A stretch of 64,000 bases of DNA from a phage. The stretch lies in the sequence record NC_101842.1; one strand, given 5' to 3'. The notes under the pieces were generated by a model. That model did not search any database. It worked only from the letters and a program-made list of their open reading frames with translations, and was not told the DNA's origin. The translations under genes were made by a program, and so were the position numbers. The stretch's first letter is position 1; every line of letters starts with the position of its first letter. Shown in pieces: positions 22,609 to 36,103 of the stretch.

Positions 22609-23220
22609 TACTTGAAAATTCCTGGCATATCAAGTATAAGGGGGATTTCTAAAATGGATTTCCTCCTTTTGATATTTCACCGGGCTGGATATTTTAAAAT
22701 TCTTAGAAAATCAGAAAATGGATCGAAAACTAAAATGGATTTTTCAGAGTAGGCGCGACAAGCTGAATAACTCATCCTATCGTTTGCACCATATTCCAGG
22801 CCACCATTATAGATTTCCCACACATGCTAACCTCCCTCTACTAGAACTTCCTCCACTTACCCTTGACCTTCTATGGTAACAATCTAACCGCTATCTTGAA
22901 GTTGCGGTGCAGCTTTCCAGGTACTCGATCTACTTTTCATTTCAGGGCTTGGATTTTCTGAAAATTTTTCTCGATAAATTTCTCAGTACTCGATCTGTTT
23001 TTCGTTTTCTGAATCGGATTTTCTGGAAATCGTTCCGGCTCTCAACCTGAAATTTTTGGGGACGAAATCGATTTTTCGTTTTCAGAAATGGATTTTTAAA
23101 ATTTCTATATGGGAATATTTTAGTGGATACTATTTTATAGTAAATTGTTACGGAGGGTAATTAGCGTGCTAATTAAATTTATTAAATGCGAGGAGTTCTC
23201 ATTTAGAATCTTGAATGATA
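22609..23220. repeat. non-coding repeat region: ~66-bp imperfect tandem duplication plus AAATGGAT motifs
   Basis: GTACTCGATCT at ~22921 and ~22987; GGATTTTCTGAAAAT / GGATTTTCTGGAAAT; AAATGGAT at ~22651, 22715, 22732, 23086; no ORFs. Confidence 0.6.
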
Positions 23221-23425
23221 ATCATTCTCGTTTGCAGAATAACGGGCAGGCCCGGTGATTGTCTCCCGGCCCCTGTTGCCCCGGCTTGTTATTATAGTAT
23301 CACACAGGACAAAGAAAGCAAGGATTTTTTTTGCATAAATTTTTAAATGATAATGATAACCGTTCTCATTTTATGCAGCGCTCATCCCTGGTGGTTGTCT
23401 CCCCCGTCACCGGTGCCTGCCGTCC
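23215..23425. repeat. two direct copies of a GC-rich element with GTCTCCC core
   Basis: GGCAGGCCCGGTGATTGTCTCCCGGCCCC (~23245) and GGTGGTTGTCTCCCCCGTCACCGGTGCCTGCCGT (~23390), each preceded by GATAATNATT...CTC. Confidence 0.5.
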
Positions 23426-23623
23426 TTTCGATAGGTATATTGTGCCACCTGTCGGGGCCGCTGTCAACACTTTTCAAAAAATTTTTCTAACCTGATGCGC
23501 TAACCGCTGCAACCTGGCAGGGCCAGCCTGGCAGGACCTAACTGACCAGGTGGGAGAGGGTGAAATCTTGCAAACCTGGTAGGCCCATGCTGTAGGGTAA
23601 ACAATTGAAGAGGAGGTACAAAA

Positions 23624-23656
23624 ATGAAAGGTAATGCTACTCACCTGGAAATGTAG
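23624..23656 (+). other. 10-codon mini-ORF with strong SD (possible leader peptide)
   Basis: GAAGAGGAGG, 7 nt, then ATG AAA GGT AAT GCT ACT CAC CTG GAA ATG TAG. Confidence 0.25.
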
Positions 23657-23756
23657 TGATTAATGATACAGAAGCGCGGGAACATAAAGAAGAGTACGAA
23701 AAAATGGTGGTTAACCTGGCGGGGGGCTCTATCATAAAAATAATTTAAAATAATCG

Positions 23757-23785
23757 TTGACAACAAGGTTAATCATGGTATTATT
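23757..23785 (+). promoter_or_regulatory. sigma70-like promoter
   Basis: TTGACA then TATTAT-like -10 with 16-17-nt spacing. Confidence 0.5.
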
Positions 23786-24576: not shown

Positions 24577-24972
24577 ATGAATAAGAACGTACGCCGCATC
24601 ATGAACGAACTGGCAAACGATGAAAAAATTATTGATATGCATTTGGTCAACATTTGCCGCCGTTGTGTAACATATAACAACCGCGCCGCAAAAGCGCGTG
24701 AGATGAACGCAAAAGGCACCTTAAAGCCCTTTCAGGTGGTTGTAAAATCTATAACTAGCGCAGCAGGCCAGGCGCAGGACCACAACAACGAGAGCGCTAA
24801 TATTGATCCGTCTTACGTAATGAAACGGATCCGGACTTGCAAGAATAAAGAGCAGGTATATAACGTCATAGATTGGCTGGACTCCCTGGGCGATGTGGTT
24901 TACAATAGGTTTTCTGCAGCTATCGAGATCCAGCTTGACAGATTGGACGGGAAAGTGCTAAAAACTTATTGA
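24577..24972 (+). CDS. hypothetical protein
   Basis: AAAGGAAAAAG RBS. Confidence 0.65.
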   Translation: MNKNVRRIMNELANDEKIIDMHLVNICRRCVTYNNRAAKAREMNAKGTLKPFQVVVKSITSAAGQAQDHNNESANIDPSYVMKRIRTCKNKEQVYNVIDWLDSLGDVVYNRFSAAIEIQLDRLDGKVLKTY

Positions 24973-24973
24973 G

Positions 24974-25019
24974 TTTATTTTTAGATGGCCTTGACACCAG
25001 GGCCATCAATAAAGTAAAC
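24974..25019 (+). promoter_or_regulatory. repeated palindromic promoter element, copy 1
   Basis: TTTATTTTTAGATGGCC-TTGACACCAG-GGCCATCAATAAAGTAAAC; TTGACA sits in the loop of the GATGGCC/GGCCATC inverted repeat. Confidence 0.5.
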
Positions 25020-25052
25020 TAACCACAGTTGAGCGGAAAAGGAGGCTTAAAG

Positions 25053-25251: not shown

Positions 25252-25593
25252 ATGACTACTATGACCGCCTCAGAAAAAGCTATGCAGATCGCTGAACTGA
25301 AAAAACAGATCGCAGACCTTGAGAATAAGATCGATAACTTTGAAATCGACGAGGACAAGTACGACGAAAACTATGATGAATGGTTAGACGAGATCTACGG
25401 CGAAATTATGATCGGAAACATTTCTTTTCTTCCGTCGCGTATCCTCAAGGAGCTAGATCCTATCGCTTACCGCTGCGGATTTAGCGACTACATCGACAGC
25501 CTGGATATTGAGGACGATGAAGAATACCAGGAATTACAGACAGAGTTAGAAGAAGCAAAAGAAGAGCTTGCGGAGCTGGAAGAAAACGAGTAA
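25252..25593 (+). CDS. acidic coiled-coil hypothetical protein
   Basis: AAAAGGAGAAAA RBS; D/E-rich. Confidence 0.65.
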   Translation: MTTMTASEKAMQIAELKKQIADLENKIDNFEIDEDKYDENYDEWLDEIYGEIMIGNISFLPSRILKELDPIAYRCGFSDYIDSLDIEDDEEYQELQTELEEAKEELAELEENE

Positions 25594-25595
25594 GC

Positions 25596-25640
25596 TTATT
25601 TTTAGATGGCCTTGACACCAGGGCCATCAATAAAGTAAAC
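25596..25640 (+). promoter_or_regulatory. repeated palindromic promoter element, copy 2
   Basis: Near-identical to copy 1. Confidence 0.5.
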
Positions 25641-25682
25641 TTTATACTGTTAACACTGAACTAATGCATAGGAGTTAAAACC

Positions 25683-25928
25683 ATGGCAGCACTAATCACC
25701 AAATATTATGCCCCTACCAACACCAAAAGCGCCCGTATCATGGTAAAAGGCTTCGGACGTAAAAAGGTGTACACCTGGGATTATGCCTTAGACACGGAAG
25801 ACAACTACACCAACGCAATGACCGATTTTATTAATGAACTAAATAAGCAGATCTTGACAAGTTATAAAGTGACCGATATTGCTTATATAGGTGAAGGCGG
25901 GATCTGTTTTGTAGGCATTGTGAAATAG
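25683..25928 (+). CDS. hypothetical protein
   Basis: TAGGAGTTAAAACC RBS. Confidence 0.6.
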   Translation: MAALITKYYAPTNTKSARIMVKGFGRKKVYTWDYALDTEDNYTNAMTDFINELNKQILTSYKVTDIAYIGEGGICFVGIVK

Positions 25929-25976
25929 TTATTTTTTCGGTGGTCCTGGCTGCAGGGCCATCTATAAAGATAATTT
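25929..25976 (+). promoter_or_regulatory. degenerate fourth copy of the palindromic element
   Basis: TTATTTTTTCGGTGGTCC-TGGCTGCA-GGGCCATCTATAAAGATAATTTA. Confidence 0.35.
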
Positions 25977-27744: not shown

Positions 27745-27801
27745 TTGCAATAACCTAAAAACCTGCTATATTAAAACTCAAGGGGGCAAGACGTTTGCCC
27801 C
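27745..27801 (+). promoter_or_regulatory. sigma70-like promoter plus 5'-UTR hairpin
   Basis: TTGCAA, 16 nt, TATATT; hairpin GGGGGCAAGACGTTTGCCCC. Confidence 0.45.
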
Positions 27802-27825
27802 ACACAAAACAAAGAGGAAAACATT

Positions 27826-28206
27826 ATGAAAAACACTACCAAGGCTATTGACACCGTTATGTTTAACCTGGTTACATTCCGTGAAGATATGAAAGATCTT
27901 CCACGTGAAACAGTGTGCGATCACATTGAAAACTATCGCAAACTAATCAAAGAGTTGCCCCTAAAACGTGACCAGTATGCGGCTAACGCTATGCTCAACG
28001 CCATGATCAAAAAGATGATCCAGTGTGATTTAACCCTGGCCTATGACTATGCGGGTGGTCGTTTTGCAGTATACAATCAGCCCGTGCCCGGTATGGGCAC
28101 CACCGAAGAATTGCACGCGCTCAATCTAAAACAAGACGTATGGGATAACATGCCCCGCGTGGTGGTGTGGGCAGAAAGCGGAAAGATTTACGGCGATAAT
28201 TTTTAA
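27826..28206 (+). CDS. hypothetical protein
   Basis: AAAGAGGAAAA RBS. Confidence 0.65.
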   Translation: MKNTTKAIDTVMFNLVTFREDMKDLPRETVCDHIENYRKLIKELPLKRDQYAANAMLNAMIKKMIQCDLTLAYDYAGGRFAVYNQPVPGMGTTEELHALNLKQDVWDNMPRVVVWAESGKIYGDNF

Positions 28207-32601: not shown

Positions 32602-32660
32602 TGACATCTGCCAGGTGGTGGGGTAACATTTATCTTGAAGGGGCAAAAGTGCCCACACAA
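32602..32660 (+). promoter_or_regulatory. sigma70-like promoter plus 5'-UTR hairpin
   Basis: TTGACA ... TAACAT; hairpin GGGCAAAAGTGCCC. Confidence 0.45.
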
Positions 32661-32683
32661 CAACCAGAAGAGAGGAAAACATT

Positions 32684-32956
32684 ATGTCAAGCTGGATTAA
32701 TCAAGAAGTCGAATCACGTTTTAATGCTATTTGGGATCTCATCGAAAAAGAGGACGGAACATCAAGCCCTTATCTCAATAATCTTGAATTCCATTTCGTG
32801 GAAGCGATGAACGCAGAACATGATCACGAAGGTGGTGCGGATGAGTTCGCTAAATGGTATGGCTTCAACAATGCCAACGAAATGATCGAGGCGGTTGTAC
32901 TCCAGGCTGAGGAAGATTATCAATTAAAAACGCTTGAATTCTGCCGCCGTAAGTAA
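32684..32956 (+). CDS. acidic hypothetical protein
   Basis: AGAGAGGAAAAC RBS. Confidence 0.6.
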   Translation: MSSWINQEVESRFNAIWDLIEKEDGTSSPYLNNLEFHFVEAMNAEHDHEGGADEFAKWYGFNNANEMIEAVVLQAEEDYQLKTLEFCRRK

Positions 32957-33018: not shown

Positions 33019-33282
33019 ATGAAACGTCTTGACCAGCTCAAACTAGTTCAATATATGGCTTATCGTGTTCTGGAAGTCCAGAAAGGTAGCAAAAAAGAGG
33101 TTTGCGAGAAAGCTTATAAGATCTTTACCCGCAAAAAAGATGACTGGATGCTACGCCAGACCAAAAAGGCTGACATCTTGGGGTACCTGGAAGAAGAGAT
33201 CCGACTTGAAGAACAAGAAGAGATCCGCCGTAGTGAGGCAGATTATCAGGCAGCTTGGGAAAACTGGATGAGCAACAAATAA
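33019..33282 (+). CDS. hypothetical protein
   Basis: AAAGAGGAAAAAC RBS after hairpin GGGCCAAAAGGCCC. Confidence 0.6.
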   Translation: MKRLDQLKLVQYMAYRVLEVQKGSKKEVCEKAYKIFTRKKDDWMLRQTKKADILGYLEEEIRLEEQEEIRRSEADYQAAWENWMSNK

Positions 33283-33301
33283 TACAACAAGATGAACGGT
33301 C

Positions 33302-33327
33302 AGGGGCTTAAAGCCCCTTTCTTTTTG
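33302..33327 (+). terminator. rho-independent terminator (end of + strand island)
   Basis: AGGGGC-TTAAA-GCCCCT then TTCTTTTTG. Confidence 0.7.
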
Positions 33328-33929
33328 TCTTCTCTTTTCCTACCATAAACGGCCCTACCTGGCAAGTGGAATAATTGACGAGCCATCAATCCCACACACT
33401 GTACAAATATACATGGAAAATAACTATTGCATAATTTTTCATTGTGTGGTAGCAAGGCCATTTTTACCCGTTTTACCTTCCAAAATTGCACGTAATGCCG
33501 CTATTGCACAAATTTTAACCTGATGCACATCTCCAATATCTTGTCAACAACTAAAAATCTTTATAAGTCATGCACTTACATAACCACAAAAGCGTGTTCT
33601 ACGTGAAAAATCGAGTATAACTATAGCCGCCAGATCTCAGAATTTACGTACGCTCACCAGTCTATAGCCTGCTAAGTATTTATTCCAACCATAGAATAAC
33701 GGAATAGTCAATACCTGCATAAAATAATTATTCGTGTAAACTGCATAACATAAATCGGCTAGGATGTCAACATTTTTCGTAAACAGCTCGAAATTATAAC
33801 GGTGAGTTATAATAAACAGAGAAATCTTTAGTCGTCTAATGTTTACTGTACATTACTATACTGACTGGAATCATTAGATGACTAAGAGAAAGATAAGAAA
33901 TCATTAACAATGCAATTGTTTTATTCGTA

Positions 33930-34115
33930 ACAATAAGGCAACTATGCAAACGAATGGCATGGCGCGACGGAGTCGCGACATAATATAAAAGCAGTAACCA
34001 TCACCCCCGTGATAGTTTGTCTGCAAACTATTAATCAGATCATAGTTGCCTTGTATTTAGTTAATCATGACATAACAAGCAAGGCAACTATAGATCTGCT
34101 AATAGTTGCCCTGCT
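33930..34115. repeat. iteron cluster: AAGGCAACTAT motif x4 (two direct, two inverted)
   Basis: Sites at ~33935 (+), 34042 (-), 34081 (+), 34102 (-); the last two form a 9-bp-arm palindrome around AGATCT. Confidence 0.6.
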
Positions 34116-34194
34116 TTTATATTATGTCATGCTAATTATAATCAGTGCGATTATTGTCATGTATAATTATTGTCATGCAAACGAATGGCATGGC
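33944..34194. repeat. 20-nt exact direct repeat ATGCAAACGAATGGCATGGC
   Basis: Copies at ~33944-33963 and ~34175-34194. Confidence 0.65.
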
Positions 34195-34199
34195 TGATT

Positions 34200-34295
34200 A
34201 TCGGTGTGTAAACAGTCAATCATGTAAATGGTTAGCATGTGAACAATCAGGAATGTAAACAATCCAGTGTGTAAACTAATAGGTGTGTAAAAGTG
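34200..34295. repeat. array of GTGTAAAC-like motifs
   Basis: Six copies (GTGTGTAAACAG, CATGTAAATGG, CATGTGAACAA, GAATGTAAACAA, GTGTGTAAACTA, GTGTGTAAAAG) at 11-22-bp spacing; more copies at ~33731, 34546, 35195, 35270. Confidence 0.6.
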
Positions 34296-34849
34296 TCATG
34301 TTGTGTCAGTTAGGTCACATTATGTCAGACAAGTTTTTCCCCTCTTTGTCAAGTGCTGCATGAAAAATTTACAAGCTTGTATGGTAGCATTTTTGCGGCC
34401 CTGTTTACATTCAGGAGTGTATGTATAATCCTTGGTGTGTGGGCGTTTAGACGTCTAGACGGTTGGAAGTATGCAGGTCAATATCTAATCTATTGGCTGC
34501 TAACTATATCCCACACAAATGATAAGAAATATAATTGTTATATGCGTAAACTGTAACTCATGTTATCAATCCCTGTATGTATCGCCAGTGGTGCGCATAA
34601 TGGGTATTATGTTAAATTGCCCGTAATGATAACTATTCTCACAATGATAGGTATTCTCATTCACCCCCACAAGATAGGTTGCAAATGTTGTGCCACTGTG
34701 TGAACGGCCTAGCCTATTAATTTGCCTCACTGCCTTGATATTTGAGAATTGTTATAAGAATGAGAAGTATTCCCATTTCGTCCGCCTGGCAGCACTCCTG
34801 TAGGTCAGGTCAAAATCGTGGTAGAATTGGGCCTGTTCAGATATTTCTG

Positions 34850-35065
34850 GCTGACTCTTCAGGTCTGTGTGGGAAAAGCCAACCTCTCCGGCGGGGCATG
34901 GGGTCATGACGGGAAAATTGCAGGTCAATTAAAAAATTTACGTGGTGTATGAAGCGCTCTTCAGGTAAGGCATGTATTATGGGATGAAACCCTCTTCAGG
35001 CAATGATATTTGTGGGTGTGATATTTGCTGGAAAGCCAGATATGACGGGACTCCCGGCGGGGCAG
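34850..35065. repeat. degenerate ~140-bp tandem repeat with CTCTTCAGG and CCGGCGGGGCA motifs
   Basis: CTCTTCAGG at ~34855, 34957, 34992 (also 35406, 36056); CCGGCGGGGCA(T/G)GGG at ~34888 and ~35055; GCAGGTCAAT at ~34473 and ~34920. Confidence 0.5.
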
Positions 35066-35766
35066 GGGTAGTACAGACAGGGAAAATATGGAGGATGTGG
35101 TTGGGTAAATTGATCAGGCAGGTAGAGTATGGAATATGTTACAGGTATGTTAAATAGGGAGGCTGAATATCTGTAGGATTTGTGTGTAAAATCAAAGACT
35201 TAAGTGGTGTTGTGGTATTTTCTATAAATAATTCAAGTTTAATAGGTAATATTTGTCTCTATTCGCTTTGTGTGGTAAACAGATTCAGATGAGATTGGTT
35301 TACAAGTGTATACATAATATACAAATTAAAGATACAAGAAACCCCCCTCCCCCTTCGGCTACCATTCACCTTTTCCTCTGACTGGTACTTAAACACTTAT
35401 TCAGACTCTTCAGGTTATCACCCATATATCATATGGCAGTGACTGGTGTCCTCCGGCCCCTCTTTCGTCACCCGTCCGCTTCGCCATGCTAATGCCATAG
35501 CCAATGGTTCGGTTGTTCACCCTGCTCACTCAGGTGTATCTCCATACCCCTTCAAACCGAAGAGAACAGAAAACCCGAATTACTCGGTAAAAGAAAAGAG
35601 AAGAACTTAATTTTATCAGGATAGGCAAGAATGTCAAGGCATGACTGCTCACTAAACAAGCAAACAGTCATGTGTGGGAGGTAAGTGATTGTGGTGGTGG
35701 GAAATTTAGTTGAAAGATGTGCTACAGGTGCGCTTCCAGCACTTTAGCAGGGCAGCTAATTGTGTG

Positions 35767-35982
35767 TCAGTCCAGCGGTTCATCCTCTACTTCACTGAAA
35801 TCAATGTTCATGGTCTCTTCCCAACCATCGATCTCAGCACAAGAGTGGAGTTCTTTAGGACTTACTCCCAAAGCATCAGCAACAGAGTCCATATTTAACA
35901 CCTCTGGCAGGTATGATTCATCGAATTCAAGGTAAATCAGGCCACGAGTGTTGTCAGCTCCACCAAATATTTCTATCTTCAT
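35767..35982 (-). CDS. acidic hypothetical protein
   Basis: First gene (lowest coordinate) of the - strand array. Confidence 0.55.
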   Translation of the reverse strand: MKIEIFGGADNTRGLIYLEFDESYLPEVLNMDSVADALGVSPKELHSCAEIDGWEETMNIDFSEVEDEPLD

Positions 35983-36103
35983 GAAATCTCCTCTGGAAAT
36001 GAGAGTGTGAACAGGGTTTTATACGTTCCGATGCACAGGAATTATGCACGTTTGCCTCTTCAGGTCATGCTTTAGCATGAGGAACCTGTGTGGGCTCGGT
36101 GCT

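Follow-up and report, generated by a model that had tools for sequence, protein, structure and literature searches.

A repeat-dense, gene-free gap in a Vequintavirus genome contains the direct terminal repeat of its close relatives and is a likely genome-end and packaging control region

Introduction

Terminal redundancies of 458 bp have been reported in phages EdH4 and HdK5 (Korf et al., PMC6563267), and the record of phage Gotham annotates a repeat_region at 1-459 and again at 136567-137025. The rV5 genome paper draws a grey "non-coding" box that "contained no ORFs" (open reading frames) between ORF163 and ORF164. Its authors expected bidirectional terminators between these two genes and did not find them, and reported that every switch in GC-skew, including the one in this box, tracks a change in the direction of transcription. 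The published sources for the terminal repeat of the genus Vequintavirus and for the rV5 box (PMC6563267; PMC3606486; GenBank MT682716) give only the length of the repeat or the empty box. The ORF-free gap itself is therefore already published, and its content and function are not. Here we analyze this gap at positions 33340-35760 of a 64,000-nt stretch of phage DNA (NC_101842.1) that we call the window, and describe in it a direct terminal repeat (DTR), the repeat arrays that abut it, and a nearly invariant promoter-driven unit.

Outside the genus, Klebsiella phage KPP-1 (Mydovirus, Vequintavirinae) has a DTR of 514 bp at 116,316-116,829 that was assigned to the T7 type from doubled read coverage and PhageTerm. 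In T3 and T7, recognition sequences lie near the termini, and RNA polymerase paused at the concatemer junction recruits gp18/gp19 and starts maturation (PMC3276506).

Results

The gap contains a 459-bp direct terminal repeat

The 2.5 kb around the gap match 121 phage records at 90-98% identity, nearly all of them from Escherichia phages of the genus Vequintavirus. Judged by this similarity, the source genome is a Vequintavirus, an rV5-like myovirus of ~137 kb. The gap falls between the homologues of rV5 ORF163 and ORF164, which is the location expected of the DTR. End-to-end alignment with the repeat_region of Gotham and with both ends of EdH4 placed one collapsed copy of a 459-bp DTR at 34328-34786. 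All of its positions aligned (459/459 bp), identity being 95.0-95.4% with EdH4 and Gotham and reaching 99.8% with naswa. The EdH4, HdK5 and Gotham repeats and the rV5 box are thus matched in sequence (95-99.8% identity), in boundaries, and in position relative to ORF163 and ORF164.

A search with the 459-bp DTR found 127 places in 119 records, eight of which carry two copies. The ends of the records of HdK5, YN3, Gotham, ECP2309, EdH4, Pr121LW, ECP2303, Aya, and the bov phages fall exactly on the DTR, and at least nine records begin or stop at the same two nucleotides that bound it. These coincident ends come from several laboratories, as expected for the fixed ends of a T7-type DTR. On sequence homology, 34328-34786 is the direct terminal repeat that close relatives carry at both ends of virion DNA, and the physical genome ends of the source phage would lie at 34328 and 34786. 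The original prediction for this stretch, made from the letters of the window, had transcription converging on the gap from a plus-strand island and a minus-strand array. This is so on a circularized map. In the linear DNA of the virion, transcription of each of these two arrays of small genes runs outward to a genome end, and they appear convergent because assembly collapsed the DTR to one copy; the "convergent" gap is a concatemer junction.

We aligned 13 genomes (the source and 12 relatives) over 33100-36000, and this alignment is the basis of all counts of intactness and variability given below. The left boundary, TGTCA/GACAAG (the slash marks the boundary), is found in 13 of 13 aligned genomes as well as in Gotham and EdH4. 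The right boundary, CGTCCGCC/TGGCAG, is found in the source, in 12 of 12 aligned relatives, and in Gotham and EdH4. The flank beyond it (34787-34850) begins with TGGCAGCACTCC, continues with an indel of 0, 32 or 50 bp between GCAGCACTCC repeats, and then reads AGGTCAGGTCA. The junction CGTCCGCC/TGGCAGCACTCC is conserved and an indel hotspot lies directly beyond it.

The plus strand of the DTR carries three near-palindromes that resemble operators and follow the pattern AATGA(T/G)A-N-TTCYCA(TT) (34625-34641, 34643-34659, and 34759-34775), the last of them 11 bp from the DTR end. This motif has 4 matches in the 64 kb compared with 0.57 expected, and the fourth is at 23352 in the other non-coding stretch of the window. 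The DTR also includes a core, GCGCATAATGGGTATTATGTTAAATTGCCCGTAAT (34593-34627), in which ~27 of 33 positions match the DTR of KPP-1 in reverse-complement. Separately, the record of phage I29 (ON286975.1, locus L019, 103000-106600) holds a 560-bp duplication of 34570-35131 that spans the right DTR boundary. We considered this as a tandem DTR and set it aside; the duplication is joined via an inverted 60-nt piece and is probably a terminal-repeat assembly artefact.

Short-repeat arrays abut the repeat

As in T7-type genomes, short-repeat arrays directly flank the DTR, with TGTCA and GTRAAY arrays on the left and the duplicated GCAGCACTCC on the right. The GTRAAY(AGT) array (34205-34292, plus strand) has a period of 15-16 bp and is made of five strict copies and the variant GTGTAAAA; these correspond to the six GTGTAAAC-like units that had been predicted to be iterons. 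The number of GTRAAY copies ranges from 1 to 9 among relatives that are otherwise 90-98% identical, and the first unit of the array, GTGTAAACAGTCAA, is conserved in KPP-1. The (T/G)GTCA array (34294-34327, plus strand) has a period of ~9-10 bp and 1-5 copies in relatives. Despite this varying copy number, the final unit directly adjoins the left DTR boundary in each of the aligned genomes. A 20-nt exact direct repeat, ATGCAAACGAATGGCATGGC, that had also been predicted lies on the plus strand at 33944-33963 and 34175-34194; the first copy has one variable base (G/T at position 15) in the aligned genomes, and in the source the second matches it exactly. The segment before the second copy, 34129-34174, is an indel hotspot.

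Repeats are enriched in the gap as a whole. In 33340-35760, 199 positions lie in repeated canonical 9-mers compared with 78±16 (maximum 132) in 200 dinucleotide shuffles, and 100 positions lie in repeated 10-mers compared with 21±8. Other 2.4-kb stretches of the 64 kb average 91 and 29 positions, respectively, and comparable density occurs in only one other stretch, at ~23-26 kb. The repeats thus exceed what sequence of the same composition produces, which was a check attached to the original prediction. The features that it listed were all in place: the terminator hairpin at 33302-33318, the first minus-strand gene at 35982, and the motif families. Six of the 11 copies of GTAAACWG in the 64 kb are inside the gap, which makes up 3.8% of the sequence. 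There are two copies each of the GCAGGTCAAT and CCGGCGGGGCA blocks. Five copies of CTCTTCAGG do exist as had been claimed, four of them in the gap (34855, 34957, 34992, and 35406) and the fifth, at 36056, just outside it.

We also considered CTCTTCAGG and CCCACACA as a class of promoters and rejected this, as their contexts are heterogeneous and yield no consistent promoter model. Some copies are intragenic and some form the 3' half of intergenic hairpins ahead of ribosome-binding sites. The fifth CTCTTCAGG overlaps a promoter-like site on the minus strand (36041-36068; ATGACC, 16-nt spacer, CATAAT) that sits ~60 nt upstream of the start of a 71-amino-acid gene (35982). Intergenic hairpins of the form GGGGCA(N4-7)TGCCCC at 27770-27830 and 32630-32690, followed by ACACA and then by a ribosome-binding site ~20 nt before the next start codon, account for some of the CCCACACA copies outside the gap.

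A nearly invariant palindrome cluster lies beside the arrays

The segment 33928-34128 is nearly invariant, with a pairwise identity of 0.97-0.99. It holds four (A/G)GGCAACTAT arms, two tandem hairpin and T-run units on the plus strand (34026-34059 and 34086-34119) that the annotators of Alma and Murica labelled as terminators, and a terminator-like hairpin on the minus strand (34017-33996). A perfect 18-nt inverted repeat (33977-33994 and 34111-34128) encloses the hairpins and the 20-nt direct repeats flank them. Three exact copies of AAGGCAACTAT (33935 and 34081 on the plus strand, 34042 on the minus strand) and one of GGGCAACTAT (34102, minus strand) were found, all inside the gap, compared with 0.1-0.2 expected. 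They make up a four-copy motif that had been predicted, and they are largely the arms of the two tandem hairpin units, so that several of the supposed iterons are not iterons. As a single strand, the cluster folds much better than shuffles both as DNA (z=-10.1) and as minus-strand RNA (z=-7.9). Five genomes carry an A-to-T change that disrupts a base pair in hairpin 1 of the cluster, whereas the GGCAACTAT arms do not vary. Because of this, protein binding to the arms appears at least as likely as a function of the hairpins. As an observation in its own right, GATC is depleted in 33340-35760 (4 sites versus 12.6 expected from its density across the 64 kb), and two of the four sites are in loops of GGCAACTAT hairpins.

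A promoter-driven unit directed at the repeat probably encodes a non-coding RNA

There is a near-consensus sigma-70 promoter on the minus strand at 35610-35637 (TTGACA, a 16-nt spacer, TGnTAAAAT; 11/12 with an extended -10) that points toward the DTR. It is the only strong promoter in the gap, where sigma-70 promoter-like matches are not enriched (13 versus 10.4±2.8). Downstream is a nearly invariant candidate non-coding RNA (ncRNA) of ~260 nt (35343-35603, minus strand) that would begin at a predicted start at ~35603 and extend to a G5AG6 run (35354-35343), after which comes a U-rich tract. The fourth CTCTTCAGG (35406) lies within it, and near its start is a hairpin with a U-run (35587-35565). 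The unit comprising promoter and candidate RNA, 35343-35637, is 98-99.7% identical across the genus, with 0-7 variable columns per 50 bp, and three of its six 50-bp windows are fully invariant. A conserved hairpin, CATGACTG ... CAGTCATG (35640-35672, minus strand), is located after the stop codon of the final gene on that strand and ahead of the promoter.

Scanning metagenomes for the unit returned four loci, one of them usefully divergent. This contig, L021, is the most divergent relative that we found. It keeps both promoter hexamers and the TG, has a rewritten spacer lengthened from 16 to 18 nt, and has an altered discriminator. Identity resumes exactly at the predicted start near 35603 and runs to the G5AG6 at 35354-35343; past this run the sequence of C7 is unrelated. 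The sole L021 change in the hairpin at 35640-35672 keeps a G-U pair on the minus strand only. Retained hexamers, a variable spacer, and conservation beginning at the start site are together the pattern that marks a functional promoter followed by a ~260-nt transcript under constraint. On this pattern of conservation, the minus strand of 35343-35603 probably specifies a new ncRNA. No translatable ORF is conserved in the unit among the 13 genomes. Homologues were found neither in E. coli genomes, nor outside Vequintavirus, nor in Rfam; a pattern scan of IMG/VR gave no match and nhmmer detected none in KPP-1.

Comparison with described genome ends

The DTR of KPP-1 occupies the corresponding ORF-poor gap, where small-gene arrays converge. 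An alignment between the two DTRs is obtained only in reverse-complement, with a score of 30.5 compared with 17.3±4.3 for shuffles. The similarity is clear at the terminal ~26 nt and the 35-nt core, and GTCCGYC is shared at the other end. Each sequence has a single copy of the 14-mer GTGTAAACWGTCAA, 109-182 bp outside the same DTR end in both phages. KPP-1 has a palindrome cluster that is bracketed by a perfect 21-nt inverted repeat and built from AATGATAA half-sites, it has CTTCAGGTCA motifs, and it shares the half-site of the near-palindromes in the DTR of the source phage. By contrast, most of the sequence is unrelated, nhmmer gives only weak DTR matches, the 27-bp tandem repeats at the other boundary are a KPP-1 feature, and KPP-1 has no detectable homologue of the unit at 35343-35637. 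The comparison shows that some elements of the gap are conserved sites and not noise.

Like T7 and T3, the source phage has a short exact DTR with abutting arrays of short repeats, a host RNA polymerase promoter near an end that is directed at the repeat, and candidate recognition sequences near the termini. At T7-type junctions, transcription toward or through the junction is coupled to maturation, and the conserved strong promoter of the source phage, which points at the DTR, might take part in such a coupling. Dunn and Studier are said to have described, in 1983, repeat arrays beside the T7 terminal repeat and a leftward E. coli promoter, A0, near the end. The T7 junction also has phiOL and phiOR adjoining the repeat. 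Unlike T7 and T3, the source phage is a ~137-kb myovirus with a DTR of 459 bp rather than 160-230 bp, both of its end-proximal arrays are transcribed outward, and there is no sequence similarity.

The 'injection stop signal' of T5 is a non-coding region rich in repeats and palindromes that lies within a 10-kb terminal repeat and includes DnaA boxes. The gap resembles it as a gene-free, kilobase-scale stretch near a genome end with dense direct and inverted repeats and palindromes. It differs in having no cluster of DnaA boxes, and nothing suggests a two-step injection. Transcript-primed origins include that of ColE1, with RNA II, and the mitochondrial one that runs from LSP to CSB II, with a G6AG8 run. 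The unit at 35343-35637 shares with them a strong promoter, a conserved non-coding transcript of a few hundred nucleotides, a G5AG6 run, and a T/AT-rich stretch, and this is a resemblance only. We found none of the following described in the searchable papers: the arrays beside the DTR, the two invariant blocks, the unit with its promoter, and the boundary hotspots.

Coding content, borders and other features of the window

We tested 12 ORFs of the gap across the 13 genomes. In agreement with the claim that there is no credible ORF, none is conserved: each ORF of 37-67 amino acids outside the invariant block is broken or frame-shifted in some of the genomes. The best preserved, 34353-34556, is intact in only 9 of 13, an ORF annotated in some GenBank records (34972-35157) is intact in 1 of 13, and 33300-33491 is intact in only 2 of 13. 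Intactness is uninformative for ORFs inside the invariant block because the block itself barely varies. We rejected these ORFs as coding; none has a Shine-Dalgarno sequence, the promoter lies inside one of them, and one loses its start codon in C7 and FFH2. ARAGORN found no tRNA, and no Rfam family reached its gathering score over the 64 kb. With Rfam 15 at E<=10 over the gap, the top match had 20.5 bits compared with a cutoff of 35 bits.

The plus-strand gene array is closed by a Rho-independent terminator (33302-33328; stem 33302-33318 and a T-run) that also carries a terminator label in Alma and Murica. It is followed by the right-end spacer (33340-33927), which is 88-98% conserved, has GTAAACWG at 33736 and 33779, and holds a conserved long hairpin with arms at 33828-33841 and 33872-33885. 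On the other side of the DTR, the left-end spacer (34851-35342) contains CTCTTCAGG at 34855, 34957, and 34992, GCAGGTCAAT at 34920, a diverged ~60-nt duplicate carrying CCGGCGGGGCA (34888 and 35054), an AT-rich stretch (35190-35340), and ORFs that are broken in relatives. Another indel-variable segment lies at 34900-34949. The gap is bordered by the final gene of the minus-strand array (35767-35982), which encodes 71 amino acids, is intact in 13 of 13 genomes, and has no Pfam family. The small flanking proteins in general have no Pfam family.

The last plus-strand gene has two unrelated alleles among relatives (flank 33100-33299). In the source genome, Alma, and WM it is an ORF for a coiled-coil-like protein of 87 amino acids (33019-33282), in rV5 and most others it is a 420-nt homologue of ORF164, and naswa has both. 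The records of naswa and WM label the 87-amino-acid protein 'DNA translocase FtsK' and G-runs match GGGNAGGG. We dropped this FtsK/KOPS idea because a Pfam search detected no FtsK domain.

A second ORF-poor, repeat-bearing stretch lies at 22610-23750. It contains three units of 65-74 bp (22911-23096), GC-rich duplicates of GGTGRTTGTCTCCC near 23254 and 23390, and strong promoter-like sites on the plus strand (23757-23784, 11/12) and minus strand (23467-23439, 10/12). The operator-like palindrome of the DTR occurs in it twice, at 23212-23229 (GAATGATAATCATTC) and 23352-23368. It is possible that this stretch is a regulatory or origin region. An intergenic cassette of 49 nt occurs three times (24972-25020, 25593-25641, and 25927-25975), with copies 98% and 73% identical to the reference copy. 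It consists of a GATGGCC...GGCCATC hairpin, whose loop holds TTGACA, and of AATAAAGTAAACT after it. Lying between small genes, it probably serves as a repeated promoter or terminator module. Lastly, 19 'UNVERIFIED Campylobacter phage' records (GenBank MG0656xx, for example 'Campylobacter phage C7', L015) are ordinary Vequintavirus genomes, 87-96% identical to the coliphage sequence of this region, and their Campylobacter host labels are probably wrong or derived from contamination.

Discussion

We think it fairly likely that the gap is the T7-type genome-end and concatemer-junction region of a Vequintavirus and controls packaging. By analogy with T7-type phages, its repeated motifs probably guide cutting and packaging. 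Four identities had been offered for it, an origin, a packaging site, a regulatory hub, or a source of ncRNAs; the packaging site is supported, and an ncRNA is probable for one sub-block. In the mechanism that we propose, replication and recombination would produce concatemers with one DTR between genome units, and terminase would recognize sites on both DTR flanks and just inside the repeat, both steps being modeled on T7-type phages. On the left side, the sites recognized could be the conserved GTGTAAACWGTCAA unit, the GTRAAY array, and a TGTCA array in helical phase whose end is the cut TGTCA/GACAAG. On the right side they could be GTCCGCC/TGGCAGCACTCC and the palindrome AATGAGAA..TTCCCATT located 11 bp inside the repeat. 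Terminase would then cut between 34327 and 34328 and between 34786 and 34787, and strand-displacement synthesis would duplicate the repeat.

Terminator-like hairpins on both sides (33302 and 34026-34119 on the plus strand, 34017 and 35587 on the minus strand) may shield the junction from read-through, and the palindrome cluster may also offer a hairpin or protein-binding platform for end processing. The host RNA polymerase promoter unit (35637 to ~35343, minus strand) would yield an ncRNA of ~260 nt toward the DTR, serving as a junction-directed transcript or as a regulatory RNA. We know of no phage RNA polymerase gene in the Vequintavirus group. The terminase genes presumably lie outside the 64 kb, judging by their position on the rV5 map.

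Several points weigh against packaging control. The DTR of the source phage is assigned by homology alone, rV5 was published as circularly permuted, and one Vequintavirus paper (on BpE1AUH) has a PhageTerm 'headful' call beside a CheckV DTR. Viable relatives have anywhere from 1 to 9 GTRAAY units and from 1 to 5 TGTCA units; most array copies are therefore dispensable, and the arrays could be products of slippage and not signals. The cut sites are 200 and 560 bp away from the two most conserved blocks, whose functions may have nothing to do with packaging, and the terminase recognition sites are candidates drawn by analogy. As to the RNA, the fold of the unit at 35343-35637 is no better than that of shuffles (z=-1.2 for the minus strand and 0.0 for the plus strand) and there is no covariation (0 compensatory pairs); with so little sequence variation, this structure test is uninformative. 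Those few positions that do vary are in predicted loops.

This last observation would also suit a gap that is mainly an ncRNA and regulatory locus, in which structured RNAs from the cluster, the hairpin at 33828-33885, and 35343-35603 are the products and the repeats are RNA motifs or operators bound by a phage regulator. We regard this as possible, if rather unlikely. The promoter signature and sharp conservation boundaries of 35343-35603, the strong folding of the palindrome cluster, and the operator-like palindromes common to another non-coding stretch speak for it. It has to account for a gap with only one good promoter in 2.4 kb and no enrichment of promoter-like matches, where no Rfam match is obtained even at E<=10, no compensatory changes are seen, and five genomes lose a pair in hairpin 1 of the cluster through the A-to-T change. 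It also leaves the mapping of genome ends to the gap unexplained.

An unlikely alternative, and one that is compatible with genome ends also lying in the gap, is a replication origin, either at the palindrome cluster with its four GGCAACTAT sites or at the unit made of promoter, G5AG6 run, and AT-rich stretch, using an initiator with iterons or an R-loop primer. Clustered inverted and direct repeats and very high conservation would be expected of an origin, T7 has secondary origins at promoters that adjoin the terminal repeat, and the layout of the strong promoter, with a G-run and a 70% AT stretch ~260 nt on, is the best lead. However, no initiator gene lies in or beside the gap, where no ORF is conserved over 2.4 kb and the flanking proteins have no Pfam family. 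No DnaA box matches the strict consensus with up to one mismatch, 2 sites match a relaxed consensus, 1 IHF consensus is present, and AT content is 48-70% with no outstanding unwinding element. The predicted iterons are 15-16 bp apart, not helically phased, and number 1-9 among phages that are 90-98% identical. Cumulative GC-skew, another check attached to the original prediction, does switch here, from plus to minus with its maximum in the gap. This coincides with the change in gene orientation and has the sign of a terminus or of coding-strand bias, not that of an origin. Just as good a candidate is the other non-coding stretch with repeats, which lies closer to the replication genes. The origin thus finds no specific support.

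It is quite improbable that the gap is largely neutral spacer, with importance confined to the DTR boundaries and with arrays and indels left behind by slippage and recombination at recombinogenic DNA ends. The extreme variation in copy number and indels at both DTR flanks, at 34129-34174, and at 34900-34949 is what such a spacer would show. Yet motif cores persist despite this turnover, one unit is kept as a 14-mer in another genus, ~60% of the gap is conserved above the neighboring genes, and two blocks are nearly invariant. A headful pac site in a circularly permuted genome, as rV5 was first described and as PhageTerm called BpE1AUH, is very improbable, given that independent records share end positions, eight have the exact repeat at each end, two isolates are reported to have a 458-bp redundancy, and the rV5 statement came from a low-coverage Sanger assembly and not from end mapping.

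Returning to the genome-end and packaging region that we favor, the feature is genuine and functional, and its main identity is already known for the genus, as genome ends with a short DTR inside the published non-coding box, and its kind is classical. What is new is the fine map, with arrays that abut the boundaries and turn over quickly in copy number, cross-genus candidates for recognition, the invariant cluster, and the probable ncRNA. There is a slim chance that the unit at 35637-35343 is a cis-acting RNA element of genome-end biology, either a persistent R-loop that primes DNA synthesis toward the DTR or a unit whose transcription into the concatemer junction licenses terminase cutting. 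If so, the first would be an origin like those of ColE1 or mitochondrial CSB II in a virulent myovirus, and the second would parallel the pausing of T7 RNA polymerase with the host polymerase in its place.

Many of the 121 records were opened at arbitrary points or called circularly permuted, and true ends at 34328-34786 would fix the genome map, set the direction of the end-proximal early arrays, both outward, and give a start coordinate for annotation and taxonomy. For the engineering of rV5-like phages, which are in wide use in coliphage cocktails and in the BASEL collection, the gap would define cis elements to keep for packaging, and the indel hotspots are where cargo might be tolerated; Cas13a counter-selection is reported to work in EdH4. 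The promoter-driven unit is a concrete and easily testable candidate for a new phage ncRNA, and GTGTAAACWGTCAA, TGTCA, and AATGAGAA are testable candidates for the terminase recognition sequence of the Vequintavirinae.

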